NCBI GenBank assembly: GCA_016196465.1
Contig: JACPXR010000035.1
Coordinates: 1 to 55,270 of the forward strand
Length of the DNA stretch: 55,270 nucleotides
From: Candidatus Omnitrophota bacterium
GTDB lineage: Bacteria > Omnitrophota > Gorgyraeia > 1-14-0-20-64-10
Reading direction: 5' to 3'
The position numbers and the translations under genes were made by a program. The notes under the pieces are model-generated. The model was not told where the DNA came from. It was given only the letters and a program-made list of their open reading frames with translations, and did no database searches. Positions 16,640 through 49,904 of this stretch are shown here, in pieces (the stretch's first letter is position 1; each line of letters begins with the position of its first letter).

Positions 16640-16652
16640 TGGTTCGACCAGA

Positions 16653-21824: not shown

Positions 21825-22599
21825 GCTTAATCCTTACAGCTTAATCCTTATCGCTGCTTTCGTTGCTGGTTGTGCGGTGGCGCATATCCGCTCCGGGGCT
21901 GAAGCGCCCCTGCCGCAGACGATCGCAGGGCTCTCAGAAATCCCCGTCGGGGAGGAGCTGGAGTACCAGGTTTCCTGGTGGGGGGCGCCCGTCGGGACCG
22001 TCCTCCTGAAGAGCTCCAAGGCGAATGGACTCATCCAGCTTGAATGCACGGGCCGGTCCAACCGGACGCTGGATGCTTTCTACCCGGTGAGGGTGAAGTT
22101 GACGAGCTGGGTGGACCGGGCCGGCTCTCCTCAGAAATTCAACGCCAGCGTGAAGAGGCGCCGCCGGCTCCACGAAAGCACGATCGCTTTCGATCACCTG
22201 AAAGGGAGCGCTTATCATGAGCTGCCGAAAGGGAAAACAGCCGTCGTTTCCATTCATCCCCAGACGCAGGACGGACTCTCTCTTCTCTACCATGCCAGGA
22301 TGCTCCCTTTTGAAAGCGGGCAGACCCTCCCGCTGGAGGTGACGGCCGACGGGAAGAACTGGTCTCTGACCGGAAAGGTCCTGCGCTCCAACGTCGTCAC
22401 GCTGGCTCGCTTGGGAAGCTTTTCCTGCATCGAGGGAGAGGTGGAGTTGAGCTACCCCGTTCCTTTTTTCCAGGGGGCGAAAGCGCGGATTTGGTTCACT
22501 GAAGATTCCAAGCGGATTCCCCTTCTTGCCAAGATCCATTCCCGCATCGGTCCTGTGACCGCTGTCCTGATCCGCCTCGAGCCATCGCAAGTCAGTTAA
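21817..22599 (+). CDS. DUF3108-like lipoprotein
   Basis: GTG 21817 gives VFKLNPYSLILIAAFVAGC, a signal peptide with a lipobox Cys. ELEYQVSWWGAPVGT and QDGLSLLYHARML resemble DUF3108. The listed ORF start 21676 lies inside the preceding gene. Confidence 0.6.
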   Translation: MFKLNPYSLILIAAFVAGCAVAHIRSGAEAPLPQTIAGLSEIPVGEELEYQVSWWGAPVGTVLLKSSKANGLIQLECTGRSNRTLDAFYPVRVKLTSWVDRAGSPQKFNASVKRRRRLHESTIAFDHLKGSAYHELPKGKTAVVSIHPQTQDGLSLLYHARMLPFESGQTLPLEVTADGKNWSLTGKVLRSNVVTLARLGSFSCIEGEVELSYPVPFFQGAKARIWFTEDSKRIPLLAKIHSRIGPVTAVLIRLEPSQVS

Positions 22600-22626
22600 T
22601 AGTAATTGAGTTTTTGTTAAATAACA

Positions 22627-22655
22627 TTGAAATCAAAAGGGTATCCAGGTAAACT
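22627..22655 (+). promoter_or_regulatory. possible sigma70-like promoter for the 22684 gene (TTGAAA-N17-TAAACT)
   Basis: Hexamers at 22627-22632 and 22650-22655 lie in the only clearly AT-rich tract of this part of the window. Confidence 0.3.
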
Positions 22656-22683
22656 TTTACTACAAGCTACCCTGAAGAGCCCG

Positions 22684-24672
22684 ATGAGGTTAACCCAAGC
22701 GCTCACTCGAACGATAGGGATTTTCCTGTCGCTGGCCATCGCTTCGCCCGGCCCTGCCTACGGATTGCGCCAAGCCGGCCTCGAGGAGAATCCCAAGAGC
22801 CGCGGGGAGCTGAAAAGGGCCTTGACGATTCGCTCAGGATTGGAGGAGAAGGTGGTGGAAGTGAGAAACCTCGCTTTCGGCCAAGAGGTCACGGATGGGT
22901 TCGGGCATTCCGGGCCTGCCGGATTGAAGGTTAATATCCAGGGCAAGACCGTTGAGTTCGGATCGAGGGGTGTCGCCGAGATTCTCTTTCCCGGCAAGCC
23001 CGGCCGGCGGATTTATCTGGCCACCCACCACCAGATCGCCTACTGGATTCTGGCCAGGGCCTATGACCTCAGGTTGATTCCCCTCCGAGCGATCCGGCTT
23101 TTGTTCACCGACTGGCATGCGGATGATGCCATTTCCTACGAGGAGCCGCCTCTGGCTCCTTTGAGTGCGGTGGAAAGGTTTATCGGCGCCGGCAGGACCA
23201 CGACCAGCGTCAATCGGCTGGGCGCGACCCACCGGGCGGTGTACGAGGAAGATTTTGTGGATGCCCTGCTCAAGGCGGGGCTCATCGCCTCCTACGATTG
23301 GTACGGCAACCCGCGGCTTCCTCTCATGACAAAGCAGGACACCCCACAACGCTCCATCTTGGATTCTGCGCAGATCCCCCTTGCGGCAACCAACCTCGGC
23401 AGCATTGATCTGGACGTCGCCGGAGAGGATCTGGAGCATCTGCCGGAACTTTTCCCTCATCTTCTCAACCTCGCCAGAAAAAGCGAGATCAACATGATCT
23501 TCACGAGCCCCGGCTACGTGAAGGACCAGACCAAAGCGAAGTTGTTTGCCGCGGCGCTGGCCAACACGCTCATCGAGGTCAAGCGCTTGGAAGAGGAGGG
23601 GGAGATTGAGCGGCATCTCTCAGGCCGAAAGAGGGTCGAGCTAGTCCAGGCGGAAGGAACCGATCCAAAGGAGTTTGTCGATGAGCTGAACCGCCTCGGC
23701 AACGAAGCGCTGAGGTTTGTCTTATCTCAGATGGCGTTGGAGAAGGTTCTTGCGCCGATGAGACAGAGGCGGCCACGGCTCATCTTCGCTGATCTCGATC
23801 GGACCTCCTCGCCGGATGCCGATGCGCCTGCTGATCCCGAGGTACTGGCGGAAGTTCAAGCGCTTGCCCGAGAGGTCCCCGAGGCAAGGATCGTTCTTTT
23901 GACCGACCGGATGCCGGAGATTGTCCAGGAGCGCTTCGGGCGCTTCATCCCAGCCGATCTCACAGAGCGGGTCTTGGTGGCGCCGGTGGTTGGCGCTCAG
24001 GGGATGGGCTGGGTGGTTCCGCCGGAAGTGGAAGCGGTGATCGACGGCGTGATGGAGGAGGCGAGGCGGCGCGGGATTCGACCCGGGGATCCCGCTCAAG
24101 GGACTGGGAGCGGCAAGGTGCTTTTGCAGATGGACGGCAAAACCTACGGGATTGATGTCGAGTTCAATCTGGGGGAGATTCAAGCAGCCGATTTGGCGCA
24201 GAGCCGGGACAACCGATTGGAACTTGTCGCCTTGGCTCAGCGGAAGTTAGACCAAGCAGGGCTTTCCAGATTCCAAGTCTACTCAGGGGATGCCCGATCC
24301 ATCTCCATCTTTCCCCCCAAGGACGAGGGGGTCCGCTTCTGGCAGAGACGGTTTGGGGCGGCTGATGGCGAGGTCGCCTTCATCGATGACAACGGAAGCA
24401 GGCTCAGCTCCGCCCACTCAGGGCTCGTCGGAGTGGCCTCCCGCGGCGGGCTCTCAATCTGCTGCGGCACGCGCCCCGGCGATTACGAAGAACTGCCGAC
24501 CGACCTTGGAATCGTCATGACAAAAGGGCTCGCCACAGGCCCCAAAGTCGCCGCCATGGCCCTCCGGATGATCCGACAGGCCCACCGCGCCGTCGGCCTG
24601 GAGGAGGGGGAGAAGGCAGAGGCGGTGGGTGTGGGGGTCATCCAGGACCGGGAGGTGGAGAGGTGGCTTTAG
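22684..24672 (+). CDS. secreted GLEE-motif protein A: signal peptide, double-GLEE leader, His/Asp-rich N-terminal module, HAD-like phosphatase module, GLEE + 21-aa tail
   Basis: ATG 22684 gives MRLTQALTRTIGIFLSLAIASPGPAYG (signal peptide). GLEE codons at 22774-22788, 22834-22848 and 24592-24606. HAD motif I FADLDRT and motif IV-like FIDDNGS. The TTG 22627 start in the track adds a non-hydrophobic extension. Confidence 0.75.
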   Translation: MRLTQALTRTIGIFLSLAIASPGPAYGLRQAGLEENPKSRGELKRALTIRSGLEEKVVEVRNLAFGQEVTDGFGHSGPAGLKVNIQGKTVEFGSRGVAEILFPGKPGRRIYLATHHQIAYWILARAYDLRLIPLRAIRLLFTDWHADDAISYEEPPLAPLSAVERFIGAGRTTTSVNRLGATHRAVYEEDFVDALLKAGLIASYDWYGNPRLPLMTKQDTPQRSILDSAQIPLAATNLGSIDLDVAGEDLEHLPELFPHLLNLARKSEINMIFTSPGYVKDQTKAKLFAAALANTLIEVKRLEEEGEIERHLSGRKRVELVQAEGTDPKEFVDELNRLGNEALRFVLSQMALEKVLAPMRQRRPRLIFADLDRTSSPDADAPADPEVLAEVQALAREVPEARIVLLTDRMPEIVQERFGRFIPADLTERVLVAPVVGAQGMGWVVPPEVEAVIDGVMEEARRRGIRPGDPAQGTGSGKVLLQMDGKTYGIDVEFNLGEIQAADLAQSRDNRLELVALAQRKLDQAGLSRFQVYSGDARSISIFPPKDEGVRFWQRRFGAADGEVAFIDDNGSRLSSAHSGLVGVASRGGLSICCGTRPGDYEELPTDLGIVMTKGLATGPKVAAMALRMIRQAHRAVGLEEGEKAEAVGVGVIQDREVERWL

Positions 24673-25314: not shown

Positions 25315-28300
25315 ATGGAAAGAAAGATTGATCTGACAAAAACGCTCTGGCGCCCGGAGTTTGAGAAGGACTCCTGCGGGGTCGGCTTTGTGGCCGATGT
25401 CTCAGGGAAGCCCAGCCACCGGGTCCTTCGGATGGGGATCCAGGGGGTCTGCTGCGTGACCCACCGCGGGGCGGTCTCCGCCGACGCCAAGACCGGCGAT
25501 GGGGCAGGGGTCCTAACCCAGATTCCAAGGAAGCTCTTTGCCCGGGAGCTTGCCCGGCTGGGGCATCCCAAGGCAAGCGTGCAAGATTTGGCGGTGGGAG
25601 TCTTCTTTCTCCCGCAGGACCCCAGCTCCCGCATCGCCGCCAAGGGGATCGTTGACCGGATCCTCCGGGAACAGGGGCTCACCCTGTACGGCTGGCGGGA
25701 AGTGCCGGTCAACCCCGACGTGCTCGGAGAGAAGGCCCTCTCCACCCTGCCGGCGATCCAGCAGCTGTTGGTCGGGCGCGGGACGGTACCCGGCACCGAT
25801 TTCGAACGGCGGCTCTACTACACCCGCCGGCTGATCGAGAAAGCGTTTGCCCAGGCGCGGCTTTCGGACTGCTACATCCCCTCGTTTTCTTCCAGGACGA
25901 TCGTCTACAAGGGGCTTTTTGTGGCGCCCCAGCTTTCTTCCTTCTACGAAGACCTCACCGACCCGGCTTTTGAGACGGCGATCGCCCTCTTCCATCAGCG
26001 GTATTCCACCAACACCTTCCCCAACTGGATCCTCGCCCAGCCGTTCCGCCACCTGGGGCACAACGGGGAGATCAACACCCTCCTGGGGAACCGGAACTGG
26101 ATGCGGGCCCGGGAACCGGAGCTGAAGTCTCCGGTTTGGGGGGAGAAGATCCAGGACCTCATCCCGGTGATCCAGCCCGGCGGCTCCGACTCCGCCATGC
26201 TGGACAACGTGCTCGAGCTTCTCACGGCCTCCGGTTACAGCATCCTTCACGCGATGACGATGCTCGTCCCCGAGGCCTGGCAGAACATGCCCGGGATGGA
26301 CCAGAAACTGAAGTCCTTCTACGAATTCCAGGCCTGCCTCACCGAGCCGTGGGACGGCCCGGCGGCGCTGGCCTTCTCCGACGGTGTCGTGGTCGGGGCC
26401 GCCCTCGATCGGAACGGCCTGCGCCCCGCCCGCTACAAGGTGACGCGGGACGGCTTGGTGGTCTTGGGCTCCGAGGTGGGGATCGTGGACCTGGACGACG
26501 GGCAGGTGATCGAATCCGGCCGGCTGGGGCCGGGGCAGATGCTGGCGGTGGACACCGCCCGGAAGAAACTCCTCAGGGACCAGGAGATCAAGCATGAGCT
26601 TGCCAGCGACAAGCCGTATGCCGCCTGGCTTCATGAACGCATGCTCCGGGCCCACCTCCTGAACCTCAACGAGGGAAAGCTGCCGGTTTCCGTACCTGGT
26701 ACGAGGTTTGATCCGCTCATCCGGCAGTTGAAGGCCTCCGGCTTCACCCAGGAGGACCTCCAGTTCATCGTGAAGAGCATGGCCGAAACCGGCAAGGAGC
26801 CGGTCGGCTCGATGGGGGACGACGCCCCCCTGGCGATCCTTTCCAGGAAGCCCCGGATCATCGCCACCTATTTCAAGCAGCTCTTTGCCCAGGTGACGAA
26901 CCCCGCCATCGATCCCCTGCGGGAGCGGCTCGTCATGTCCCTGAACACCGGGCTGGGGGCCCGCGGCTCCATGCTTGAGGAGACCGCTGAGCATGCCAAG
27001 TGGATCAAGTTCGCCTCGCCGGTTTTGACCGAACCGGAGCTGGAATGGCTCTCGGAGCTGACGGATCCTGCGTTTAGGTCGATTCGTCTTCCGGCTCTCT
27101 TTCCCGCCCAAGCGGGGCCCCAGGGCCTCCGGCGGGCCGTGCAGAGGTTGTGCGAGACGGCCGCGGCGGCCGTCGACGCGGGCCACTCCATCCTCATCCT
27201 GACCGACCAGGGGATCGATGCTCAGCGCGCGGCGATCCCGATGCCGATGGCGGCGGGGGCGGTCCACCATTCCCTGATCCGGCAGGGGAAAAGGATGCGC
27301 TCCTCGATCGTCTGCGAGACGGCCCAGGTGTGGGACATGCACCATTTTTCGCTCTTGATCGGCTACGGCGCCGCCGCCATTCACCCCTACGGGATCTTCC
27401 GGGCGATCGCCTGGATGCATGCCTCCGGCCTCTTCAAAGGGGTCACCCTCGACCAGGCTTTCGCCAACTACAAGAAAGCGGTGGAGGACGGGATCCTCAA
27501 GATCATGTCCAAGATGGGGATCTCCACCGTGGCCAGCTACCGGGGCGGGCAGATCTTTGAGGCGATCGGCCTGAACGAGGAGGTGGTCGAGACCTGCTTC
27601 ACAGGGACCGTTTCCCGGATCGGGGGGGTGGGGTTTGAGCTGATCGCGAAGGATGTTCTCGCCCTGCATGCCTCGGCGTATCAGGGACAGTCCCCTTCGG
27701 GGACAGTCCCTGCGCAGCTCGATCCGGGCGGGTTCTACCGTTTCCGGAGGGACGGGGAGGCCCACGCCTTCAACCCCCAGGTGCTGGACGCCCTCCACAC
27801 CGCGGTCCACACGAACGAGTGGTCCGATTACCTGAAGTACGCGGAGTTTGTGAACGGCCGGGAGCCGATCTGTCTGCGGGACCTCTGGGAATTCTCTTCC
27901 GACCGGAAGCCGGTTCCGGTGGAGGAGGTGGAGCCGGTCGAGGCGATCCGCAGGCGCTTCTGCACCGCCGGGATGTCGTACGGCGCCCTTTCCAAGGAGA
28001 CGCACGAGTGCCTGGCGGTGGCCCTGAACCGGATCGGCGGGAAGTCCAACTCCGGCGAGGGAGGGGAAGATCCGGTCCGGTTTAAGCCCTTTCCGAACGG
28101 CGACTCCGCCAACAGCGCGATCAAGCAGGTCGCCTCGGGCCGGTTCGGGGTCACGCCGGCCTACCTCGCCAGCGCCCGGGAGCTGGAGATCAAGATCGCC
28201 CAGGGCTCCAAGCCGGGCGAGGGGGGCCAGCTTCCCGGCCACAAGGTGTCGGAGGAGATCGCCAGGGTTCGCCACTCCGTCCCCGGCGTGACGCTCATCT

Positions 28301-29847
28301 CCCCGCCGCCGCACCACGACATCTATTCGATCGAGGACCTGGCCCAGCTCATTTACGATCTCAAGATGGCGAACAGTCAGGCCGGGGTCTGCGTGAAGCT
28401 GGTGTCGGAGGCGGGGGTGGGGACGATCGCGGCTGGCGTCGCCAAGGGGTACGCGGATGTGGTCCACATCGCCGGGCACGACGGCGGCACCGGAGCCAGC
28501 CCCATCTCCTCGATCAAGAACGCCGGCTCCCCCTGGGAGCTGGGGGTGGCCGAGACCCAGCAGGTCCTCGTGATGAACGACCTTCGCCGCCGGATCACCG
28601 TCCGGACCGACGGAGGATTGAAGACCGGCCGGGACATCGTCACGGCGGCCCTTCTGGGGGCCGAGGAGTACAACTTCGGCACCGCCGCTCTCGTCGCGGC
28701 CGGTTGCTGCATGGTCCGGCAGTGCCACCTCAATACCTGCCCGGTGGGCGTGGCCACCCAGGACCCCAAGCTGCGCCTGAAATTCAATTCGCCGCCGGAC
28801 CTGGTGGTGAACTTCTTCACCTTCATCGCGCGGGAGGTGCGGGAGACGCTTGCCCGGCTCGGTTTCCGCTCGCTCGATGAGGTGGTGGGCCGGGTGGACC
28901 TGATCAAGGTCAAGCCCTCCGCCTCCCAGGACCCCAAGTGGGGTTCCATCGACTGGTCAGCGATCCTCACCGATCCGGATCCCTCCGGCAAAAGCCCGAA
29001 GCGCTGCCTCATCGCCCGCAACGACCGCGAGGATACCCCCTTGGATGAGCAGATTCTCAAAGAGGCGGTTCCGGCCCTGGAAGGGCGGGGGCGGGTGGTC
29101 CTCCGTTACCCAGTGAAAAACCATCAACGTTCCATCGGCACCCGGCTTTCTCATGAGATCGCCCTCCGGTACGGCGATGCCGGACTGCCGGGCGGGGCCG
29201 CGATCGAGGTTCAGCTCGCCGGATCGGCCGGCCAGTCGTTCGGGGCCTTCTTGATCCACGGGGTGCGCCTGGCCTTGACCGGCGACGCCAACGACTACGT
29301 GGGCAAGGGAATGCACGGCGGAGAGATCGTCATCAAGCCGAACCCCCGCGTCCCGGCCAGGGCCGAGGAGCTGGTTTTGGCCGGCAACACGGTCCTCTAC
29401 GGAGCGACCGGCGGCACCCTCTATGTGAACGGTCTGGCCGGCGAGCGGTTCTGCGTGCGCAACTCCGGCGGCGAGGCCCTCGTCGAAGGAATCGGCGACC
29501 ACGGCTGCGAGTACATGACCGGGGGTGTGGCCGTGATCTTAGGGTCCACGGGACGCAACTTCGGCGCCGGCATGACAGGCGGCGTTGCCTTCGTCTGGGA
29601 CCCGGCGGAGCTCTTCCCCAAGGCGTACAACCCGGCCCTCGTTGAGCTTCACCGGGTGGAAGACCTTGAGGATCAGGATCTCTTGAAGTCGATGGTCCTC
29701 CGCCACGCGGAGCTGACCGGCTCGGCCCGGGCGAAGGAGATTCTCTCCAGCTGGGAGGGAGCGGTCTCCCAGTTCTGGAAGGTGTCGCCCAAGAAGGAGG
29801 TTGTCAAGCTGGAGGCGGCCGTCGGCGCCCCTCAGGCGCAGAAGTAA
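25315..29847 (+). CDS. gltB: glutamate synthase large subunit (no gltD follows it, so possibly a ferredoxin-dependent type)
   Basis: 1510 aa. Ntn amidotransferase start FEKDSCGVGFVA, FMN/Fe-S central domain, GXGXG-repeat C-terminal beta-helix (GDANDYVGKGMHGGEI, GIGDHGCEYMTGG). Confidence 0.95.
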   Translation: MERKIDLTKTLWRPEFEKDSCGVGFVADVSGKPSHRVLRMGIQGVCCVTHRGAVSADAKTGDGAGVLTQIPRKLFARELARLGHPKASVQDLAVGVFFLPQDPSSRIAAKGIVDRILREQGLTLYGWREVPVNPDVLGEKALSTLPAIQQLLVGRGTVPGTDFERRLYYTRRLIEKAFAQARLSDCYIPSFSSRTIVYKGLFVAPQLSSFYEDLTDPAFETAIALFHQRYSTNTFPNWILAQPFRHLGHNGEINTLLGNRNWMRAREPELKSPVWGEKIQDLIPVIQPGGSDSAMLDNVLELLTASGYSILHAMTMLVPEAWQNMPGMDQKLKSFYEFQACLTEPWDGPAALAFSDGVVVGAALDRNGLRPARYKVTRDGLVVLGSEVGIVDLDDGQVIESGRLGPGQMLAVDTARKKLLRDQEIKHELASDKPYAAWLHERMLRAHLLNLNEGKLPVSVPGTRFDPLIRQLKASGFTQEDLQFIVKSMAETGKEPVGSMGDDAPLAILSRKPRIIATYFKQLFAQVTNPAIDPLRERLVMSLNTGLGARGSMLEETAEHAKWIKFASPVLTEPELEWLSELTDPAFRSIRLPALFPAQAGPQGLRRAVQRLCETAAAAVDAGHSILILTDQGIDAQRAAIPMPMAAGAVHHSLIRQGKRMRSSIVCETAQVWDMHHFSLLIGYGAAAIHPYGIFRAIAWMHASGLFKGVTLDQAFANYKKAVEDGILKIMSKMGISTVASYRGGQIFEAIGLNEEVVETCFTGTVSRIGGVGFELIAKDVLALHASAYQGQSPSGTVPAQLDPGGFYRFRRDGEAHAFNPQVLDALHTAVHTNEWSDYLKYAEFVNGREPICLRDLWEFSSDRKPVPVEEVEPVEAIRRRFCTAGMSYGALSKETHECLAVALNRIGGKSNSGEGGEDPVRFKPFPNGDSANSAIKQVASGRFGVTPAYLASARELEIKIAQGSKPGEGGQLPGHKVSEEIARVRHSVPGVTLISPPPHHDIYSIEDLAQLIYDLKMANSQAGVCVKLVSEAGVGTIAAGVAKGYADVVHIAGHDGGTGASPISSIKNAGSPWELGVAETQQVLVMNDLRRRITVRTDGGLKTGRDIVTAALLGAEEYNFGTAALVAAGCCMVRQCHLNTCPVGVATQDPKLRLKFNSPPDLVVNFFTFIAREVRETLARLGFRSLDEVVGRVDLIKVKPSASQDPKWGSIDWSAILTDPDPSGKSPKRCLIARNDREDTPLDEQILKEAVPALEGRGRVVLRYPVKNHQRSIGTRLSHEIALRYGDAGLPGGAAIEVQLAGSAGQSFGAFLIHGVRLALTGDANDYVGKGMHGGEIVIKPNPRVPARAEELVLAGNTVLYGATGGTLYVNGLAGERFCVRNSGGEALVEGIGDHGCEYMTGGVAVILGSTGRNFGAGMTGGVAFVWDPAELFPKAYNPALVELHRVEDLEDQDLLKSMVLRHAELTGSARAKEILSSWEGAVSQFWKVSPKKEVVKLEAAVGAPQAQK

Positions 29848-29873: not shown

Positions 29874-29904
29874 GCGAAGCAATCTGGATTGCTTCGCCAT
29901 TTTT
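29874..29904 (+). terminator. rho-independent terminator after gltB
   Basis: GCGAAGCAATC (29874-29884) pairs perfectly with GATTGCTTCGC (29887-29897), followed by CATTTTT. Confidence 0.7.
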
Positions 29905-29925: not shown

Positions 29926-32900
29926 TTGAAAAGAACTCGTCTCTGCTCATCTCTGCTTATCTTGGCCCTTGCTTTAAGCGGCACTCCCTCTGCCTTTGCC
30001 TTGCGCCCTCATGCCGACACCGCCGGCCTCGAGGAGAAACTCGCCCCCGCTCGCCCTTCGACAGGCTCAGGGCGAGATTCCCGCACCGGACTGGAGGAGC
30101 TTCCCTTCTGGCCGGGGGCGGCCGAGGTGGAGCCCTGGGGAGGCCCCGGCTTCATGCCGGTCCTCTTTACGAATGGAGAAGGCACCTTTGAGGTATCCGC
30201 CCATCTGTGGGATCTTCCTGTTCCGGCAGAACTGACCGCGGAGGAGAAGCGGACGGTCTACGGTCCCTGGATTTCTGACTCTCCAGAGAACCAGCGCGTT
30301 GGAGACCGTCCATTGAAGGATGCCCCCCCTCAAGTTCGCCTTGACATCGAGAAGCTTCTTCGCAGAGAGGTGGCTCAAACCCTTCACGCCCGCTACCGGC
30401 TACCCGGGGGAAACGGCGCCCTTGGAAAGGAGATGCAGGTGAAGATGGCTCTTCACAGCGTTCGCGTCTACATGCCCGGCGGGAATATCCGTTCCGGCCA
30501 GCCGAAGATGGAAGTCCTCTACAAGGCGGAAATCTCCGCCAGGGATCCTGTGGATTCCGCTTTTACGGTCCAGATCGCTTCGCCTGGCGGGAGGCAGTTT
30601 CGTCTGGGGCACAAGGGATGGATCCGGATCCAGCGGTGGAAGAGGGAGCTGAAGATGAAGCAGGCGATCCAGCCGGACGGGAAGGTGGTCCACGTGGTCC
30701 AGGTCCCCTCTTCGAGGGATGGATGGGTCCAGCGCAGGCCCCATGAGGATACCGGAACGGTGATTGAGCGGTTGGTCCATGAGGCCGCGGACCGGGCCCA
30801 GCCGGGCCAGAGGACCGTTCTGGCGGCGGACGTGGGCAGGGGGGCCGGGGCGACGGAAGGGAACGCCGACATTGTCGATCCGGAGGAAGTCTTGGATCTT
30901 TTGCCTGCCGAAGGAGGCAGCCGGGGGATCGACTGGATACACCTCTCTGAGCAAGGGATTTGGGCGGGTGTGCGCGGCCACCGGAGGGCTGAAATCGTCT
31001 TTGAAGGGACCCAAGAAAACGCCGAGGCCCTTATTCAAAACGCCAAACAGTTCCTGGAGGAGTTCCGGGGAGATTTTCCTCACTACAACGCTTGGATCGT
31101 TGTCCGGGAGGAGGGGACGGTACGCTTGGTGATCGTCCCGCGCAATTTCGGATGGTCGGACCAGGTGCTGTACATGGTTGATCTTGAATTTGACCGGCGC
31201 CGGTATCGCTTGGTGACCCGCGAGGAGGCAGACCGCTTCGGATGGCTCCATCTGGCTCCCGCGGGGAGCAGCGATTTTGTCATTCCGCCGGGCCGGCCGG
31301 TTCTCCCTTTTGCCGTGGACGCCCTCGCCCTGTACGGTTTTGTTCAAGCGCGCGATCCGGCGCATTACAACGACTGGTATTTGAAGCCCAGAATCGACAA
31401 GGGGCTTGAGCTGGCCGGCCTTCCCCGAAGCGATTCGAGGATTCAAGCCATGCTGAAGTGGATGAGGGATCATTCCGGGAAAGATCCCAAGAGGCAGGCG
31501 AGACGGGAGATCCTCAAGGCGTTCAATCTCCTCCGGAATGCCGATACCCCGGATGATCTTATTCGGCTGATCAAGGCAATCCAGGCGATGCGGCCCCGGC
31601 ATGAGGAGGCGTTTAAAGGCCTTCCCCCCCGGCTGCGGGACCGGTTTACCAGAGAACTCTGGAAGAAGATAGCGGAGTTTTCGAGGAGCCATCCCCAGCG
31701 GGTTCGGATTGAGATTTCCGCCTTGGGGGCTCCGGTGAAGCGTCACCAGAACGGAGAGCTCCCGGTGGTGGTGGGGGTCGGAGCCCCTGTCCTGGATTTG
31801 ATCGAGACGGTCGAGCAGGATACCCTCGTCGTCCGCCCCAAAGCGGGGGGCTCCCCCTTCCACATCGTTCAGACGGTCAGCGCTTTGAATGAGGTTCCCG
31901 TGGAATTGGTGGCGATGTTGGGCGGTGAGACGGGGAGACTGGTTTTTCAGGCGCTCGACGCCCAGGGGATACCGGTGACCCGGGTGGAAGGCCCTCCCCA
32001 ATGGGAGAACCGGGCGAGCGACATGGTGCCTCGTCCCGCCGCCTTGGGGTATCAAGGAGAGATCCGGCTGGTGGGCACCGGCTCTGACCCGTCGCTTGGG
32101 ATCCAGGATGTCCGGAGGATCTGGAAGGCGGTGCGGGAGAGGTTGGCTGGCAAAAAGGGCGTCGTCATCTACGGCGAGCGGATTGCGGGAAGTCGCAATC
32201 AGCAAAGGGCGGTCGCTGAGACGGTCAAGGAGGAGATGGAAAAGACGCTTCAAGAGGGACACCGGATCTGCGTTTCGTACAACGCCTCCTGGTCCGGAGA
32301 GATTGCGCGGATTCTGCTGGGTTCCGGCGCCTGGGGCGTTTTCCTGGATCTGGGGGCCCTCGCCAGCGCGGCCGGAAGTTTCGTGGAGGACCGAGAATTT
32401 CTGAGGCATATGCCCCCTTTTGTTCAGGAGAATCCGGAGCTTCTTACCGACCCCAATTTCCTTCGGGAGTATCAGGAGGAAGCGGCGCTCTTGGCCCACG
32501 CGATCCGCCTGAAACAGGACGTGAAATGGGGGCTCGTTTCTTTGGGCGCGCCCGGCTTGGTGCTGGTGCCGGGTGATGAATGGCGGCAGGGACGGCCCTC
32601 CGTCCTTCTGGGGTTTTCTTACTACCGAAGCGGCGCGGCGGATGGCGCTTTTGGGGGACTGCTGGAGGTGATGCTTCGGGAGCCGGGTCCTTCCAGCGCT
32701 CCGGCGCTTCAGGCGCTCGAGACGGCGACCACCTCTGCCGGAATTTACTCCAAGCGTCCCCCGGCCCTGCGGGGAGTCCCACCGACCGCCGATGAGATCC
32801 GGCAGGCCCCTCTTCCTGACGTGCGGGTCATTTTGCCGCCGCTCTCCGTCCGGGAGGAGGCCTATGCAAGTGAGGAGGCGAGGTTGGATTTGGAAGAAGC

Positions 32901-33339
32901 CGGCGGCCCTCCCCATCGGTTTTTTCAGGAGATTTTCAGGCATCTTGCCTCTTTTCCAGGCAACAACGATTCCGAGGGGCGGCTCGCTCCCTGGTGGAGG
33001 GCTTTAGGCCAGATGCGGTTGGGAGAGATCTTTGAGAACAGAGTGGGAAGTGCCGGAGGTCGCCTGATGCTTCTGCGGGCCCTTGCCGAGTTGCCCCAGC
33101 CTCCCGGTGGATCACTCCCTGCCCAAGAGGGAGAGGATCTTTCTGCTCGGCGCCTGCACCATCAGCAATGGAGGGAATCTCCCCAGGGCGTCTATTGGTT
33201 GATGACACGGTTGGTCCATCAATTTGAAGATCCGCTTCGGAGAGAGATTCGCTTCCTGACCGGGCTGGAGGGGAGGGGGGCAATGGTTGAGTGGGAGGAT
33301 TGGATCCGAAACGCGGGGAAACTGGAGAGAAATCTCTAA
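29926..33339 (+). CDS. secreted GLEE-motif protein B: signal peptide, double-GLEE leader, unknown N-terminal modules, PfkB/ribokinase-like module, GLEG + 21-aa tail
   Basis: TTG 29926 lies 6 nt after AGAGGAA and gives MKRTRLCSSLLILALALSGTPSAFA (signal peptide). GLEE at 30022-30036 and 30085-30099; GLEG at 33259-33273. PfkB-like KAGGSPFHIVQTVSAL...SGAADGAFGGLLE. Confidence 0.75.
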   Translation: MKRTRLCSSLLILALALSGTPSAFALRPHADTAGLEEKLAPARPSTGSGRDSRTGLEELPFWPGAAEVEPWGGPGFMPVLFTNGEGTFEVSAHLWDLPVPAELTAEEKRTVYGPWISDSPENQRVGDRPLKDAPPQVRLDIEKLLRREVAQTLHARYRLPGGNGALGKEMQVKMALHSVRVYMPGGNIRSGQPKMEVLYKAEISARDPVDSAFTVQIASPGGRQFRLGHKGWIRIQRWKRELKMKQAIQPDGKVVHVVQVPSSRDGWVQRRPHEDTGTVIERLVHEAADRAQPGQRTVLAADVGRGAGATEGNADIVDPEEVLDLLPAEGGSRGIDWIHLSEQGIWAGVRGHRRAEIVFEGTQENAEALIQNAKQFLEEFRGDFPHYNAWIVVREEGTVRLVIVPRNFGWSDQVLYMVDLEFDRRRYRLVTREEADRFGWLHLAPAGSSDFVIPPGRPVLPFAVDALALYGFVQARDPAHYNDWYLKPRIDKGLELAGLPRSDSRIQAMLKWMRDHSGKDPKRQARREILKAFNLLRNADTPDDLIRLIKAIQAMRPRHEEAFKGLPPRLRDRFTRELWKKIAEFSRSHPQRVRIEISALGAPVKRHQNGELPVVVGVGAPVLDLIETVEQDTLVVRPKAGGSPFHIVQTVSALNEVPVELVAMLGGETGRLVFQALDAQGIPVTRVEGPPQWENRASDMVPRPAALGYQGEIRLVGTGSDPSLGIQDVRRIWKAVRERLAGKKGVVIYGERIAGSRNQQRAVAETVKEEMEKTLQEGHRICVSYNASWSGEIARILLGSGAWGVFLDLGALASAAGSFVEDREFLRHMPPFVQENPELLTDPNFLREYQEEAALLAHAIRLKQDVKWGLVSLGAPGLVLVPGDEWRQGRPSVLLGFSYYRSGAADGAFGGLLEVMLREPGPSSAPALQALETATTSAGIYSKRPPALRGVPPTADEIRQAPLPDVRVILPPLSVREEAYASEEARLDLEEAGGPPHRFFQEIFRHLASFPGNNDSEGRLAPWWRALGQMRLGEIFENRVGSAGGRLMLLRALAELPQPPGGSLPAQEGEDLSARRLHHQQWRESPQGVYWLMTRLVHQFEDPLRREIRFLTGLEGRGAMVEWEDWIRNAGKLERNL

Positions 33340-34268
33340 AGGCCCCGGCGGTCCACCACCCAGCGGTTGCCCCCCTGCAGCTTGGCCCACTCCTTCAGCT
33401 CCGCCCCGATCTGGGCCACTTCGGCGACGTGCTTGATCTTGCGCTGGGTGTTGGTGACGACGGAGATGGAGATCGTCGTGGTTGGAAAGCGCTTGACCTG
33501 GCCGTCCCGGTCGTGGCCCACGATGAAACCCCGCTTCCGGTCGGCCTCGTCGTAGAGCCGGGGGGCGGCCTCAGCGAATTCGCTCACAATCCGCCGGCAG
33601 ATCCCTTCCACCGCCCTTGGGACGGTCAGCATCACGAAATCGTCCCCGCCGATGTGCCCCAGGAAATCCTCAGGGGTTCCCAGCTCCCGCATCGCCAAGA
33701 GGAGGATCCTCGCCGTCGATTTAAGCATTTCGTCCCCCCGTTCAAAGCCGTACGTGTCGTTGAAGGCCTTGAACTTGTCGAGGTCGATGTAGCAGGAAGC
33801 GAGGGGTTTACCCGAGTCGAGGCGGCCTTGAAGCTCCTCCAGGATGGAGACGTTGCCGGGGAGTTTGGTGAGGGGGTTGGCATCCAGCGCCCGGAGGGTC
33901 CGCCGAAGGATCATCCGGACGCGGGCGACGAGCTCCGTTGGCTCGAAGGGCTTGACCACGTAGTCATCGGCGCCGGCGTCGATCCCCTGGACCTTGTCCA
34001 TCACCTCTCCCTTGGAAGTGAGCATGATGATCGGCAGGTGCTGAAGGAGGATGTCCTTCTTGAGGACCTGAGCGACCTGGAGGCCGTTCATCCGGGGCAT
34101 CATGAAGTCGAGGAGGATCAGGTTCGGCGTCGACCGCCGGACGTAGGCGAGGGCCTCTTCGCCGTTGACCGCCTCCTGGATCTCGTAGCCCTCCGGCTCC
34201 AGGGTGAGGCGCAGGACGTCCCGGATGTCCGCTTCATCGTCGACAATGAGGATCCGCTCCCTGCTCAT
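33336..34268 (-). CDS. response regulator receiver + GGDEF-type domain (GGDDF variant)
   Basis: ILIVDDEADIRDVL receiver. DLDKFKAFNDTYGFERGD and HIGGDDFVML in the GGDEF fold. 310 aa. Confidence 0.85.
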   Translation of the reverse strand: MSRERILIVDDEADIRDVLRLTLEPEGYEIQEAVNGEEALAYVRRSTPNLILLDFMMPRMNGLQVAQVLKKDILLQHLPIIMLTSKGEVMDKVQGIDAGADDYVVKPFEPTELVARVRMILRRTLRALDANPLTKLPGNVSILEELQGRLDSGKPLASCYIDLDKFKAFNDTYGFERGDEMLKSTARILLLAMRELGTPEDFLGHIGGDDFVMLTVPRAVEGICRRIVSEFAEAAPRLYDEADRKRGFIVGHDRDGQVKRFPTTTISISVVTNTQRKIKHVAEVAQIGAELKEWAKLQGGNRWVVDRRGL

Positions 34269-34637: not shown

Positions 34638-36221
34638 TTATGGCACTCCCGCCGCCGCTTGGGCGACCGGCTGCCAGGGAAGGGTGAAGCTGAAGGTCGA
34701 CCCTTTGCCCACTTGGGAGGTGACCCGGATCTGCCCCCCGTGGGCTTCGACGATCCGCTTGACGAGGATGAGCCCCAGTCCGGTTCCCTTCCGTTCCCGG
34801 TTGATCGGGTTGTCCGCCCGGAAGAATTCGGTGAACAGCTTCGAAAGGTCCTCAGGGGGGATGCCGATGCCGGTGTCGATGACCTCGATTTGAAGGAGAT
34901 CCGGTTTGCGGGTCCCCCGGACCGTGATGAGCCCCTTCTGGGGGGTGAAGCGAATGGCGTTGGAGAGGAGGTTCACGAGGACCCGCTGGAGGCGGCTTTC
35001 ATCGGCCCGGATGTTGGGGAGATTCTGCGGGAGATCCACCTTCAGGGTGAGGTCCTTCTCCTTCAACTGGGGCCCGAGGAGGTCCGCCACGTTGTCCAGG
35101 AGGCGCGGCAGGGAGATCGGCTGAATCGTCATCCCCACCCGGCCCGACTCGATCCTGGCGATGTCCAGAAGGTCCGAGATGAGGTTGGAGAGGTAATCGG
35201 TGTGGCGGTTGATCTTCTCCAGGCGCTCGGACTGCTCCCGGCTGACCGGCCCGAGTCTCCCCCCCCGGACGAGGGCCGTGTACCCCTTGATCGAGGTGAG
35301 CGGGGTCCGCAGCTCGTGGGAGACCGCGGAGACGAAGTCGGATTTCATCTTGTTCAGGCGCACCAGCTCCTCGTTCGCCTTGGCCAGTTCCTGGGTGCGG
35401 TCGACGACCCGCTCCTCGAGCTCGTCGTGCGACTGCTTCAGCGCTTCGTAAAGCTGGAGGTTCTCGATGGCGACCCCCACTTCGCTGGCGAGGATCGACA
35501 GGAGTTCGGCGTCACCGGCTTCCAGCCGGGGGTAAGGGGGGTTTGTTCCGGCCAGAAGAAACCCCCGCGGGTGGCCTTCGAGGAGGATCGGGACCGCCGC
35601 CAGAGACTGCACGTCCGCCTGGGAACCGAGGCTTCGGGCGGTTCCTTCCTCCCCTTGAGTCTGGGCGGCGAAGAGGGGCTCACCCCGCTCGAAAACGGTG
35701 GAGCGGAGGGTCCGGATCAGGGAGGGGGCGTCAAGACGCTTCGCCTCCTCCGGCTCGAATCCGGAGTGGCCGATGAAGAGAGGCCTTTCCGCCGCTTCCG
35801 GATCGACGATGCACAGGACCGCCTTCTCGAACCCCAGGGAAGTGACGGCCGCTTCCGCGATCAGCTGAGCCAGCTCCACCACCGAACGGACTGAGAGGAT
35901 TCCCTTGGAGAGCTCATGAAGCGCGTAGAGCCCGGAGACCTTTTTGTCGAGGGCTTCCTGCGTCCGGGTGAGTTCCAGGTCGGTCTGGACGATGATCTTG
36001 GTGTTCTGGTCCAGCTCCTCGCAGACCCGGTTCACCCGGTCGAGCTCCTTCCGGTGGCCGGCGAGCTGCTGGTGGACCATCTCCTGGGTGCTGAGGAAGA
36101 AAACCCCCAACACCAGCATGAAGGCCCCGTAGGCCACCCGCAGGGTGATGAGGTCCGTCAAGGAGATCAGGATCAAAAGAAGGAGACTCGAAAGGAGCGT
36201 CAGCTTCATCGAAAGAGGCAT
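34638..36221 (-). CDS. membrane sensor histidine kinase with GAF domain
   Basis: Two N-terminal TM segments, a GAF-like region, the H-box [14 protein letters not shown], and HATPase N/G boxes ([22 protein letters not shown]). Confidence 0.88.
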
Positions 36222-36223
36222 CT

Positions 36224-37411
36224 CTAGGAGGCCGCCACCGCGGTGACCACGAGAGATTCGTTGTGGAAGTGGCTGCGCCCCCTGAAGCCGGCGGCGGTGA
36301 GAGGTGCCTGCTCGCCGTAATCGTAGAAGCCGACCAGGGGCACGCTCTTTCCCAGGACCTCCCGGATGGCCGAGACCTCCTCATGGGCCTGGCGCCCGAA
36401 GAGCCGGACCCGGGAGCAGGAGCTGAAGACCAAGGCGAATCTCGGCGAAAGGGGAGCGATGGAGCGGACCGCCAGTTCCGCCGCCCGGCGGGCCGCCTCC
36501 AGGGCCTTGGCCTTGGAGCCCATCATGAGCCGCACCTCAGACCCCTGAGGGATCTCCCCGGCGTACACGAGAGCCCCGCTTCGGTCCACGCGGAGGACGT
36601 TCCTGAGCAGGTACTCCTCCTCGTCGGGAATCGGCATTCCCAGGGGATAAACGATCGACATGTCGGCCAGGGATTCCGAGGCCAGGGAAGAGGCTGCCTG
36701 GCCGAAGTAGGTTTCGTACAGGTTCACGGCGGAGTGTCCGTCGAGCTCCTGAACCACGTTGGCCAGGGCCCGGGTGACCCGCCGGGGCCTGCCCAGCGGC
36801 TGCCAGCCGTGCCGGGCCCCGATTCCGACGGCGATCTCTCCGGCGAGAAGAATTCCAGGGACGGCGTCGGTGTAAACCTGGCCGTTGAAGAATTGGAAGG
36901 TTTTTCTGAAGGCGAAGTCGTCGGCGGCCGAGCCCCCCACGATCGGGAAGCTCAGGCCGAAGATGTCCTGGACCCCCCGGAGAATCTCGGCGCCGTTTCC
37001 CGTGAGGCCATCGGGGAACATGAGAAAGCTGTGCGGATTCGACAGCTGCGCTTTGGCGGCCTGGGTGGCCATCTCCTGCCCTGCCTGACGGGGGTTCTCG
37101 CTGATTCGAATCCCCAGGCCGGTGCTGATCTGCAGGGTCGTGGATCGGATCGTTGCCACCACCACGGAACGGCGGGCGGGGCCTTCCCCTAAGATTTCCC
37201 CGGCCGTTGAGCAACCGGCCAGGGGGGCCTCTTGGGTGATGGAACGGATCCCCTTGAGGAGGGTTTCAGGATCAAACCGGATGGAGGCAAAGACGAGGAC
37301 CAGGTCCGGCGAAGGAGGCCCCATCGATTCGAGGGCTTTGATGGCGGCCTCCTGTCCGGCCCGGAAGGAATCGGGCTGATGGCTGATTCCCACTCCCACC
37401 CACGTGGCCAT
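36224..37411 (-). CDS. FIST (N+C) domain signalling protein
   Basis: 395 aa, layout typical of FIST_N/FIST_C proteins. First gene of the minus-strand operon. Confidence 0.7.
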
Positions 37412-37445: not shown

Positions 37446-37527
37446 GGGCACGTGGCGGAACTGGCATACGCGCATGCTTGAGGGGCATGTGCCGCAAGGC
37501 TTGGAGGTTCAAATCCTCTCGTGCCCA
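37446..37527 (+). tRNA. tRNA-Leu (anticodon GAG), type II with long variable arm; CCA not encoded
   Basis: Acceptor stem GGGCACG/CGTGCCC with discriminator A. Anticodon stem CATGC/GCATG with loop TTGAGGG. Variable arm GCC-GCAA-GGC. T-arm GGAGG-TTCAAAT-CCTCT. TATAAT at 37428-37433 upstream. Confidence 0.85.
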
Positions 37528-37598
37528 TGTTCCCTCCCCCCTCGATTTCTTCCCACACCTCCCGCCTGGAGATGGCATACTTCTTACAGAAGGGAAAA

Positions 37599-39431
37599 AT
37601 GACACCGACAGCCCTCTGGACAAATCCGGCATTGCCTCCGGTGGTGGTGGGGATTTTGACCGCTCTGCTGGGGGGAGGCGTTCTCATCCGGGAGCGGGGT
37701 TCCCTGGTGAGCGCCGCCTTCTGCCTGATGACGGCGGTGGGGGCGGCCTGGCTCCTCGCCTCGGCGGCGATGCTGAGCTCTCCGGATGAGGTGACGGCGC
37801 TGCGGTGGGCCAAGATGGAGAATGCCGCGGTCGTCATCATCCCCAGCGCCGTGTATCTGTTCACCCTGGCGGTGGCGAGGCGATTCCGGTCGCTTCGGTT
37901 TTCCGCCTGGTTGAGTCTGGCCGTTTCCGCCGCCTTTTGCGCTGCGGTGATTTCAGGAGACCGGTTCGTCGTCGGGATCCAGCGCTACCCTTGGGGATAC
38001 TTCGCCCGCTACGGCACTCTCAGCTTTCCTTTTCTGGCCTTCTTCTTTTCCATGATGGTCTGGAGTCTGAGGCTCTTTTGGATGGAGTACCGCCACGCAG
38101 AATCCTCTTTGCACCGCCGCCGGTTCAAGGCCTTTCTCATCGCCTTCAGCATCGCGTATCTGGGATCGGTCGACTATCTGCCGACCTATGGGATCCCTGT
38201 TTATCCCTTCGGGTACCTCCCCGTCTTTGTGTTCCTCCTCATCGTCGCTCAGGTGATCTGGCGCTGCCGGCTGGTGGACATCACGCCGGCTTTCGCGGCG
38301 GGGGAGATCCTCCGGACGATGAGAGAAGCCCTCATCGTGGTGGACCGGGAAGGGATCATCCGGGTGGTCAACCGGTCCGCCTGCGAGATGTTCGAGCGTC
38401 CGGAGGGGGAACTCCTCGGCAGGCCGATCTGGGCGGTCGACAGGGGAATCTTCTCGAAAGAAAAGCTGGACTCCTTTCTCCGGACCAACGTGATCCACGA
38501 CTACGAAATCGTTCGTTCCTTTCCCCGGCATGGAAACCAGATCCTGGAGCTTTCCACCTCGGCGATCCGGGAGGCAACCGGCGAACCCGCGGCCCTCCTC
38601 TGCATCGCGCGGGACATCACCGAGCGGCGAAAAGCCGAGGAAGAGCTGAGTCGCGCCCATGAGAGCTTGAAGAGATCCCATCAAGAGCTGAAGGCAGCCC
38701 AGCTGCAGCTCATTCAGGCGGCCAAGATGGAGTCGGTGGGCCGACTGGCCGCCGGGGTGGCTCACGAGGTGAAGAATCCTCTGGCCACCATCCTCCAGGG
38801 CCTGGATTATCTGCAGCGCCATCTTTCCCAGCAGGACGAGGGAACGGCGAGCGCCCTCCAGTACGGGAGGGAGGCCCTCCGGCGGGCCGATACCGTGATC
38901 CGGGGACTGCTGGATTTCTCCACCGCTCGGGAGCTGGAGCTCAAGGAGGAGAACCTCAACGACGTCATGGAGCAGGCGATTCTGCTTGTCAAGCACGAGC
39001 TGGACCGGTCGCACATCCATTTGATCCGGGAGCTGGCGGAGAATTTACCGAGGGTCCCCTTGGACAGGAACAAGATCGAGCAGGTCTTTGTGAACCTTTT
39101 CACCAACGCCATTCATGCCATGCCCGGGGGAGGGGTCTTGACGGTCCGCACCTGGGCGACGCAGCTCGTGGTCGCCGCGGACGTGGAGGACATCGGCAAG
39201 GGAATTTCCGAGGAACATCTTCACAAGGTGTTCGACCCGTTTTTCACCACCAAACCGACCGGCAAAGGGACCGGCCTGGGCTTGACGGTGGCCAAGAACA
39301 TCGTCCAGCTTCATGGGGGATCTCTCCGGATTGAGAACCGCAGCCAGGGGGGCGTGCGGGCCACCTTGAGGTTGGGCGCCGGAAAGGAGGCAGGCACCGA
39401 TGGAAAGAAAAAAGAGAATTTTAATCGTTGA
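37599..39431 (+). CDS. sensor histidine kinase, N-terminal 7TM-type membrane module + PAS + HisKA/HATPase
   Basis: Multiple TM helices, a PAS segment (ALIVVDREGIIRVVNRSACEMFERPEGELLGRP), H-box AHEVKNPLATI, and G boxes. The track start 37521 overlaps the tRNA, so ATG 37599 (or 37572) is preferred. Confidence 0.85.
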   Translation: MTPTALWTNPALPPVVVGILTALLGGGVLIRERGSLVSAAFCLMTAVGAAWLLASAAMLSSPDEVTALRWAKMENAAVVIIPSAVYLFTLAVARRFRSLRFSAWLSLAVSAAFCAAVISGDRFVVGIQRYPWGYFARYGTLSFPFLAFFFSMMVWSLRLFWMEYRHAESSLHRRRFKAFLIAFSIAYLGSVDYLPTYGIPVYPFGYLPVFVFLLIVAQVIWRCRLVDITPAFAAGEILRTMREALIVVDREGIIRVVNRSACEMFERPEGELLGRPIWAVDRGIFSKEKLDSFLRTNVIHDYEIVRSFPRHGNQILELSTSAIREATGEPAALLCIARDITERRKAEEELSRAHESLKRSHQELKAAQLQLIQAAKMESVGRLAAGVAHEVKNPLATILQGLDYLQRHLSQQDEGTASALQYGREALRRADTVIRGLLDFSTARELELKEENLNDVMEQAILLVKHELDRSHIHLIRELAENLPRVPLDRNKIEQVFVNLFTNAIHAMPGGGVLTVRTWATQLVVAADVEDIGKGISEEHLHKVFDPFFTTKPTGKGTGLGLTVAKNIVQLHGGSLRIENRSQGGVRATLRLGAGKEAGTDGKKKENFNR

Positions 39432-49884: not shown

Positions 49885-49904
49885 TGATTTATCTAGGCAA
49901 CCCG

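Follow-up and report, generated by a model that had tools for sequence, protein, structure and literature searches.

A divergent, NXXE-less PfkB-fold module in a predicted exported, hypervariable protein encoded beside gltB in Candidatus Omnitrophota

The 55,270-nucleotide stretch of a Candidatus Omnitrophota contig analysed here (the window) contains, at positions 29926-33339 of the forward strand, an uninterrupted open reading frame (ORF) of 1137 amino acids (aa) with a TTG start, which we call GLEE protein B, or B, after a motif discussed below. In the explanation that we favour, with a probability of roughly 0.45, B is an exported protein whose PfkB-fold core binds a phosphosugar-like ligand and is not a standard ATP-dependent kinase, and it represents the constant chassis on which a modular surface or secreted protein diversifies rapidly. 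The core would bind its ligand outside the cytoplasm, where it would serve for ligand recognition or act as an enzyme whose phosphoryl chemistry is altered, and lineage-specific enzyme modules would be joined to the constant cassette through [RQ]-[ATSV]-G-L-E-E junctions. Fast evolution and module turnover in a fixed genomic slot would fit a surface or secreted protein that handles prey, host or environmental substrates, and such dealings have been proposed for the giant mosaic proteins of the Omnitrophota phylum (which are described in bioRxiv 10.1101/2023.11.21.568195 and 10.64898/2026.06.07.730766). The initial annotation of the ORF described a TTG-started, exported-type protein of 1137 aa with a signal-peptide-like leader and two GLEE motifs; the coordinates, the leader and the motifs are all where it placed them, and it was right to be puzzled by a fold of ATP-dependent kinases that follows an export signal.

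The PfkB identity of the core module is invisible from B alone and was established by a family profile, by the Pfam matches of relatives and by a predicted structure. Pfam gave no match to the whole protein at E<=0.1, its PfkB model did not match the isolated module even at E<=10, and a phmmer search of the PDB sequences with B returned nothing relevant. The only NCBIfam match was TIGR03168 (1-PFK) with 12.8 bits and E=0.041 against a cutoff of 216 bits, i.e. B is not an equivalog. The profile of a family alignment (A1), consisting of B and the matching parts of 15 relatives (16 sequences), found FruK (2abq, 5.2e-14), Pfk-2 (3uqe, 3.5e-13), tagatose-6-phosphate kinase (2jg1, 4.4e-8) and ribokinase (1gqt, 7.8e-5) in the PDB and covered the whole domain. 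Pfam PfkB (PF00294) was matched in 13 of the 16 aligned members with a best E of 1.7e-12, and the Pfam gathering threshold (25.8 bits) was exceeded at the position of B's module by P0006 (46.6 bits), P0011 (42.1), P0012 (32.8), P0013 (30.6), P0003 (29.9) and P0014 (28.1). An AlphaFold2 model of B computed from A1 had a predicted local distance difference test score (pLDDT) of 77.4 and a predicted template modelling (TM) score (pTM) of 0.76, as compared to a pLDDT of 39 in a single-sequence run. The top 50 Foldseek matches of the model in the PDB were all PfkB-fold kinases (LacC, FruK, Pfk-2), with E-values of 8e-13 to 4e-9 and target TM-scores of 0.62-0.80; a BFVD fold search gave no match below E=0.01. 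Judged from the profile and the model, the module truly belongs to the ribokinase/PfkB fold, although it is very divergent; its closest kin are the sugar-phosphate kinases of the FruK/LacC/Pfk-2 branch, from which it descends. The initial annotation had recognised a PfkB-like module in KAGGSPFHIVQTVSALNEVPVELVAMLGGETG (aa 639-670) and GAADGAFGGLLE (aa 903-914), and had named the lack of a PfkB hidden Markov model (HMM) hit as an argument against it. As a single sequence B indeed has no such hit, yet the homology is still shown by the profile and the structure.

The family HMM was used to map the active-site motifs onto a PfkB kinase of the ordinary kind with 299 aa (P0020, which matches B aa 640-756 and served as a reference only) and onto E. 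coli ribokinase, which served only as a ruler. Invariant in the family are D624 of the (L)NPxLD sugar-binding motif, the Gly-Gly pair G641-G642, and R696, the TR arginine that aligns with Arg90 of Pfk-2, a residue which binds the substrate phosphate; in canonical PfkB kinases these residues hold a phosphosugar. The catalytic Asp of the C-terminal DTxGAGD signature, D906 in B, is present in 15 of the 16 members. The residue preceding it is never Gly in any member (GAAD, GTAD, GATD etc.), and in B, where the box reads G903-A-A-D906, it is Ala. The positions of NXXE, the motif of active kinases that coordinates Mg2+ and phosphate and positions Mg-ATP, are occupied by D811-L-G-A814 in B, and the N...E pair was found in none of the members (0/16). 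The position of Asn46 in ribokinase (GGxxxN) is His646 in B; most of the closer orthologs also have His there, two have Tyr or Gln, and most of the distant orthologs have Asn. B has a loop S872-L-G-x-x-G877 where other members read PFRDGS, ALPTGG or YLETGG, so the loop is not conserved. The family has invariant residues of its own, namely G750-E/D-R752 (GER in B), W789 and R861, and the module of B carries an insertion of about 23 residues at about aa 820-842. The invariant columns of this otherwise 26-42% identical alignment concentrate in the sugar-phosphate (PfkB ligand) pocket. Read from the aligned sequences, the site of B looks remodelled under selection rather than decaying, with the pocket retained and the canonical hold on Mg-ATP lost. 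Given the loss of NXXE and the altered Gly before the Asp, B is probably not an ordinary kinase. The altered GAGD box noted in the initial annotation is thus confirmed in its Gly to Ala change, but the catalytic Asp is retained, and the suggestion of a pseudo-kinase, reasonable in itself, rested on the wrong residue, the stronger sign being the family-wide loss of NXXE.

The module is part of a larger conserved unit. The initial annotation saw about 550 residues without a recognisable motif in front of it. These residues fold confidently in the model into beta-rich, alpha/beta and helical domains (mostly pLDDT 80-95; B residues 55-1000 fold confidently as a whole) and are conserved together with the PfkB module as one cassette; B aa 43-993 aligns with aa 1283-2232 of the relative P0002 at 42% identity. 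The parts of the gene, all on the + strand, are the following.

29926..33339, +: whole gene B, 1137 codons, TTG start, TAA stop at 33337-33339
29926..30000, +: predicted Sec/signal peptidase I (SPase I) signal peptide, aa 1-25, with n-region KRTR, h-region LCSSLLILALALSG, c-region TPSAFA and A-x-A before L26
30001..30099, +: disordered leader, aa 26-58, with A|LR, AGLEE at aa 33-37 and TGLEE at aa 54-58; pLDDT below 50 for aa 1-54
30100..30735, +: beta-rich region near the N-terminus, aa ~59-270, made up of two blocks that resemble beta-sandwiches; conserved in P0002, P0004-P0008 and P0018
30736..31260, +: alpha/beta domain, aa ~271-445, with a conserved YNAW...RLxIxPR motif
31261..31725, +: helical linker domain, aa ~446-600, pLDDT about 88-96
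31753..32820, +: divergent PfkB/ribokinase-fold module, aa ~610-965, placed by family profile, structure model and motif mapping
32833..33258, +: C-terminal helical region, aa ~970-1111, with an FL-HL...WW pattern common to P0003 and P0004; confidence drops past aa 1000
33259..33273, +: junction motif in the degenerate form TGLEG, aa 1112-1116, after which B has only 21 more residues

At the position of TGLEG the orthologs have GLEE followed by a C-terminal module of about 130 aa, which is common to them and absent from B. The alpha/beta domain deserves a comment. At the position of B aa 300-322 the distant orthologs (P0009-P0014) carry GN(I/V/M)GxKA(A/S)AS(L/I)PDWAH(L/V)HD(V/I), a sequence that looks like the HxHxQ/D nucleotidyl-transfer motif of the HIT/GalT type and that we treat as a lead only. 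B reads ADIVD here, without the His, and the closer clade is eroded in the same manner (ADIVD, GDLLD). Pfam DUF4922 was matched weakly (E=0.002-0.008) in 2 of the 16 members, both of them distant, and a profile of the domain found nothing in the PDB at E<=10. In B aa 271-445 there is neither the His motif nor a significant HMM match that would place the domain among the HIT/GalT proteins, and the Foldseek list was filled by PfkB matches.

The family is small, and its named members all come from one phylum. An exhaustive HMMER scan of 1.84 billion representatives (1.84e9) matched 19 other proteins, about 18 of which are true relatives; P0017 was discarded as a spurious match, as it is a coiled-coil repeat protein. 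A word-indexed homolog search returned only B when queried either with the B protein or with the family profile, and a single 288-aa hypothetical protein when queried with the C-terminal module of P0002. A metagenome contig scan found only a duplicate of locus L003. A genome scan with the 5 closest sequences found relatives only in metagenome-assembled genomes of Candidatus Omnitrophota, and all members that are named in the databases are from Omnitrophota and annotated as 'PfkB family carbohydrate kinase' or 'hypothetical protein'. Members range from 1137 to 2422 aa and B is the shortest complete one, the extra length of the orthologs being due to unrelated enzyme modules placed before or after the cassette. 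These modules are a methyltransferase and a serine hydroxymethyltransferase (SHMT) in P0002, a pyridoxal phosphate (PLP) enzyme (PALP) in P0007 and P0014, a glutamate dehydrogenase (GDH) in P0011, a GH13 amylase in P0012 and P0018, and a GNAT domain with an alpha/beta hydrolase in P0013. P0009 (locus L011) contains at aa 361-624 a canonical PfkB domain (GAGD and KPNLEE, Pfam E=1.9e-26) beside the NXXE-less core and behind the same type of leader. B is thus the minimal form, leader and core cassette only, of a hypervariable Omnitrophota protein that, like B itself, is predicted to be exported.

The position of the gene, as opposed to its content, is constant. In all of the 11 loci examined the gene lies directly after gltB and tail-to-tail with a response regulator (RR)-GGDEF gene, and the downstream order is the same as in the window: RR-GGDEF, GAF histidine kinase, FIST protein, class V aminotransferase and M17 peptidase. 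The neighbours and the flanking signals in the window are listed here.

25315..29847, +: gltB, for the large subunit of glutamate synthase; it lies upstream in each of the 11 related loci
29874..29897, +: terminator-like hairpin of gltB, GCGAAGCAATC-TG-GATTGCTTCGC, then CATTTTTC; 28 nucleotides (nt) 5' of the B start codon
29912..29917, +: Shine-Dalgarno-like AGAGGA, 6 nt 5' of the TTG
33336..34268, -: RR-GGDEF gene, conserved convergent downstream neighbour
34638-36221: GAF histidine kinase gene, after the RR-GGDEF gene
36224-37411: FIST protein gene, after the GAF histidine kinase gene

The neighbours are 60-81% identical to those of the window (gltB 73% over 1509 residues), in contrast to only 26-38% for the orthologs of B. 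B is the positional ortholog of a hypervariable multi-module gene that is fixed beside gltB in Candidatus Omnitrophota. The junction at its 3' end is tight: the TAA stop of B overlaps the TAG stop of the convergent RR-GGDEF gene by 2 nt (33336-33339), and in the related loci the overlap or gap (<=13 nt) is equally small in spite of the differing C-terminal modules. At the 5' end, the ribosome-binding site AGAGGA ends 6 nt before the TTG, and the hairpin at 29874-29897 is a perfect 11-bp inverted repeat followed by a T-run, with no second copy in the window that would make it a repeated element. We saw no sigma-70-like promoter between the hairpin and the start of B, and B may be expressed by read-through of the gltB terminator. 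An opposite-strand ORF at 30400-32943 was rejected as a shadow ORF of this 62-66% GC region; the homologs belong to the + frame.

The N-terminus of B reads M/L-KRTRLCSSLLILALALSGTPSAFA|LRPHADTAGLEE, followed by 16 residues and TGLEE (the initial annotation counted 17, one too many if T54 is included in the motif; the motif pair itself is real). By inspection, this leader fits what is expected of a Sec/SPase I signal peptide: the n-region is positively charged (K2, R3, R5), the h-region L6-G19 has 14 residues and falls within the range of 7-15, and small residues occupy positions -1 and -3 of the site A23-F-A25|L26. The strongest 19-residue hydropathy window of the protein is at aa 6 (1.69) and is the sole peak fit for a membrane segment, the other hydrophobic peaks being buried strands of the PfkB fold. 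The charge balance, +3 before the hydrophobic core and net negative after it, predicts an N-in/C-out orientation. There is no lipobox in the leader and no Tat twin-arginine motif in B, which reads K-R-T-R-L; RR is found in some ortholog leaders only, i.e. in P0002 (MRRITVFF), L007 (MRRFQK) and P0019 (PRRLIAL). The first in-frame ATG or GTG after the TTG is Met77, and two in-frame TTG codons lie within or at the end of the hydrophobic stretch. The leader design is common to every complete ortholog: a signal peptide, a conserved A-L-R, and then [AST]GLEE within 3-40 residues. Its conservation is a strong argument that the hydrophobic segment is translated, and we infer that B is exported via a Sec-type cleavable leader. 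At L007 1177-1356 and L003 5696-5758, the public gene calls of P0004 and P0005 start too late and so lack the signal peptide and the first GLEE/GMEE motif; the DNA carries the full leaders. As a separate observation, the window contains a lipopolysaccharide (LPS)-core cluster at 12356-20769 that encodes a KDO transferase, a fusion of a lipid A acyltransferase with an ELM1-like domain, and proteins of the GT4/GT9 heptosyltransferase type. Such genes indicate an outer membrane (diderm), so a Sec substrate would reach the periplasm, the outer membrane or the cell exterior.

The GLEE motif occurs far more often than expected by chance, and the pair in B is not accidental. In 20 related proteins (32,881 residues) we counted 43 occurrences as compared to 1.8 expected from shuffles, an approximately 24-fold excess; when the window is translated in six frames, three ORFs account for 12 of the 14 occurrences. 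The context is [RQ]-[ATSV]-G-L-E-E. The motif is found after the signal peptide and again at module boundaries: the Gly residues of the two motifs of B are at aa 34 and aa 55, P0002 has the motif at 438, 647, 1136 and 2259, and it follows the PLP enzyme in P0007, GDH in P0011 and GNAT in P0013. In B both motifs lie where pLDDT is below 50. The synonymous positions vary freely (GGC/GGG/GGT/GGA, CTG/TTG/CTC/TTA, GAG/GAA), so the constraint is on the peptide and not on the DNA. A DNA-level signal, such as an internal Shine-Dalgarno sequence or a recombination site, was considered and rejected on account of this variation and of the lack of a consistent in-frame start after the motif. On the evidence of its placement in the sequences, GLEE is best described as an inter-module junction motif. 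A literature search for a GLEE/AGLEE motif found no description, and in term searches the two preprints on giant Omnitrophota proteins showed neither this motif nor the PfkB-like core cassette: GLEE and PfkB are not mentioned in 10.64898/2026.06.07.730766, a linker is not mentioned in 10.1101/2023.11.21.568195, and a polyprotein is mentioned in neither. We may speculate that [RQ]-[ATSV]-G-L-E-E is a dedicated Omnitrophota processing or sorting signal, placed after the signal peptide and at every module boundary of exported multi-enzyme polyproteins, and that B is a minimal polyprotein whose remodelled core is a new non-kinase (or non-ATP) extracytoplasmic branch of the ribokinase superfamily. 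This is a doubtful proposal at present; if it is true, module boundaries and possibly cleavage points could be read directly from sequence.

The window has two further GLEE genes. GLEE protein A (22627-24672, +, 681 aa) starts like a signal peptide, contains AYG|LRQAGLEE-x15-SGLEE and, 25 residues ahead of its stop, a third GLEE, and matches nothing in Pfam or NCBIfam. By eye, it has a HAD-like FADLDRT motif; its gene is in a low-GC stretch (0.586), with a DUF3108 protein gene (21676-22599) immediately upstream. GLEE protein C (49902-55270, +) runs off the end of the window and has at least 1789 aa, with a signal peptide, SHA|LRQ, seven GLEE motifs and the variants AGLEAE and AGAEE. Its only match is a weak one to a CheR-type methyltransferase (E=4e-4) near the window end. 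We found no homology among A, B and C beyond the leader and the motif. The GC dips of the window (22001-24000, 30001-34000 and 50001-54000) coincide with these genes, the regional GC around protein C (0.54-0.57) being the lowest. The GC content at third codon positions (GC3) is 0.71 in B and 0.61 in C, with a range of 0.61-0.73 for the GLEE genes, the same drop being seen in A and C as in B; the corresponding values are 0.87 for gltB and 0.88 for the RR-GGDEF gene. The low GC3 suggests relaxed codon bias, fast turnover or foreign origin. Elsewhere in the window, a tRNA-Leu (GAG) gene at 37446-37527 overlaps the first codons of a 7TM-PAS histidine kinase ORF (37521-39431), whose true start is probably further downstream.

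Several observations weigh against the reading of B as an exported protein with a phosphosugar-binding, non-kinase core. The invariant sugar-site residues and D906 (15/16 members) also fit an active kinase that binds Mg-ATP in another way, and the clustering of invariant residues in the cleft comes from alignment to solved kinases, not from model coordinates. In view of the fully canonical PfkB domain of P0009 behind such a leader, ATP-using chemistry may occur in this class of proteins. The strict linkage to gltB and the amino-acid-metabolism modules of the orthologs could indicate a cytoplasmic metabolic role; the export of B was deduced from its sequence, and Sec substrates do not usually have an Arg at +2 of the mature end, where B is predicted to carry a conserved one. 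In line with the effector suggested by the initial annotation, one can imagine B as an active ATP-dependent sugar-phosphate kinase that, once exported, is delivered into a prey or host cell or acts on its released cytosol, where ATP is available. The family-wide conservation of D906, the Gly-Gly pair, D624 and R696 speaks for such an enzyme, as does the resemblance of S872-L-G-x-x-G877 to an ATP-loop motif and the presence of other cofactor-dependent enzymes, including the canonical PfkB of P0009, in the orthologs; fast evolution and module swapping are reminiscent of polymorphic effectors, and Omnitrophota have been proposed to be predators or parasites (bioRxiv 10.1101/2023.11.21.568195). 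We nevertheless find this unlikely, since NXXE is absent from 16/16 members, the Gly before the catalytic Asp is absent from all, and the SLGxxG-like loop is not conserved in the family, and since the genes next to it in the 11 loci include neither an apparatus for injection or secretion nor a translocation domain of toxin type or a partner resembling an immunity protein.

The linkage to gltB suggests another possibility, namely that B is held on the membrane's cytoplasmic face by an uncleaved anchor and works with glutamate synthase in nitrogen or carbon metabolism. B follows gltB directly in 11/11 loci with only a hairpin and 28 nt in between, which makes read-through plausible, and the glutamate dehydrogenase, SHMT and PLP-enzyme modules of the orthologs need cytoplasmic cofactors. 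Moreover, the largest topology class (46%) among the long Omnitrophota proteins of one preprint reportedly has transmembrane helices and no signal peptide, and was read as a membrane-anchored cytoplasmic architecture (10.64898/2026.06.07.730766). Yet the charge distribution of B predicts N-in/C-out, a core of about 14 residues with a canonical A-x-A is typical of a cleaved signal peptide and not of an anchor, and the flanking genes evolve three times more slowly than B, which would be unexpected for a housekeeping partner; on balance we regard a membrane-tethered metabolic protein as improbable. B could finally be a decaying, truncated and functionless relic of a larger multi-enzyme gene, given that it is the shortest complete member (1137 vs up to 2422 aa), has neither the accessory modules nor the C-terminal module, ends in a degenerate junction (GLEG), has lost the His motif of the alpha/beta domain as well as NXXE, and has a GC3 of 0.71 as compared to 0.87-0.88 in its neighbours. 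But the frame is intact over 1137 codons behind a good ribosome-binding site, the model folds residues 55-1000 with high confidence, every family-invariant residue is retained, the motif losses are clade-wide and not recent events in B alone, and the window's other GLEE genes have a low GC3 as well, so decay appears very improbable to us.

It is instructive to compare B with the FruK/LacC/Pfk-2 branch of the PfkB kinases (PF00294; TIGR03168; 2abq, 3uqd, 2awd, 2jg1). The fold is the same (TM-score 0.71-0.80, E about 1e-12), and B has the Asp that binds the sugar, the two adjacent Gly residues, the Arg of TR and a GxxD box with the catalytic Asp. On the other hand, the B family has no NXXE, the Gly before the Asp is replaced, Asn46 is changed to His in B, and GER and an invariant Trp are found in place of GS(L/V)P and of the DxSG region, respectively. 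Also, the module of B is embedded in a predicted exported multidomain protein of 1137 aa, as opposed to a cytoplasmic enzyme of about 310 aa. A precedent for keeping the fold and changing the kinase motifs is provided by the plant proteins FLN1 and FLN2, PfkB-family pseudo-kinases that have a non-kinase role in a larger complex. These belong to the fructokinase-like branch and are plastid-localised, not exported; the likeness to B drawn here is at the level of the superfamily. By analogy, modular processed effectors such as MARTX toxins, and polymorphic toxin systems, have interchangeable enzyme modules on one exported polypeptide, short conserved junctions and a fast turnover between strains; they differ from the B family, in which we found neither a cysteine-protease domain for processing nor repeat regions, a translocation domain or an immunity gene.

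The closest comparison in terms of architecture is with the giant mosaic proteins, or 'Archaeovorins', of the same phylum (West-Roberts et al. 2023, bioRxiv 10.1101/2023.11.21.568195; 10.64898/2026.06.07.730766). These also have an N-terminal signal peptide, and cytoplasmic-type sugar-metabolism, kinase, methyltransferase, HAD, GNAT and HIT-like domains are likewise tiled on one exported or membrane-bound polypeptide. Their size is different, 10-150 thousand aa as compared to 1.1-2.4 thousand aa for B and its orthologs, which are encoded at one fixed locus by gltB and have no transmembrane arrays, C39/S8 peptidase domains or repeat scaffolds. B itself, with 1137 aa, a single hydrophobic segment and no Pfam domains, does not have the features by which Archaeovorins are recognised (more than about 10,000 aa, transmembrane anchors, C39/S8 or SecA-like domains). 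Post-translational cleavage is suspected for the giant proteins, and one of the papers names the missing cleavage points as an obstacle (West-Roberts et al., 10.1101/2023.11.21.568195). The fold of the B module is already known, and so is this phylum's habit of placing strings of cytoplasmic-type enzymes after signal peptides. What appears to be undescribed is a PfkB branch that has no NXXE but has invariant residues of its own, a hypervariable locus in a fixed position, and the role of GLEE as a junction motif. If confirmed, the module would be a branch of the superfamily that has the phosphosugar pocket and the catalytic Asp, but not the Mg-ATP motif, behind an export signal, and would amount either to a new extracytoplasmic sugar-phosphate-binding module or to new chemistry on an old fold. 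GLEE provides a concrete point of entry into the way in which Omnitrophota assemble, and perhaps cleave, their mosaic multi-enzyme proteins, and the locus between gltB and the RR-GGDEF operon offers a natural comparative system for following how modules are gained and lost in a phylum that is uncultivated and suspected to contain predators and parasites.

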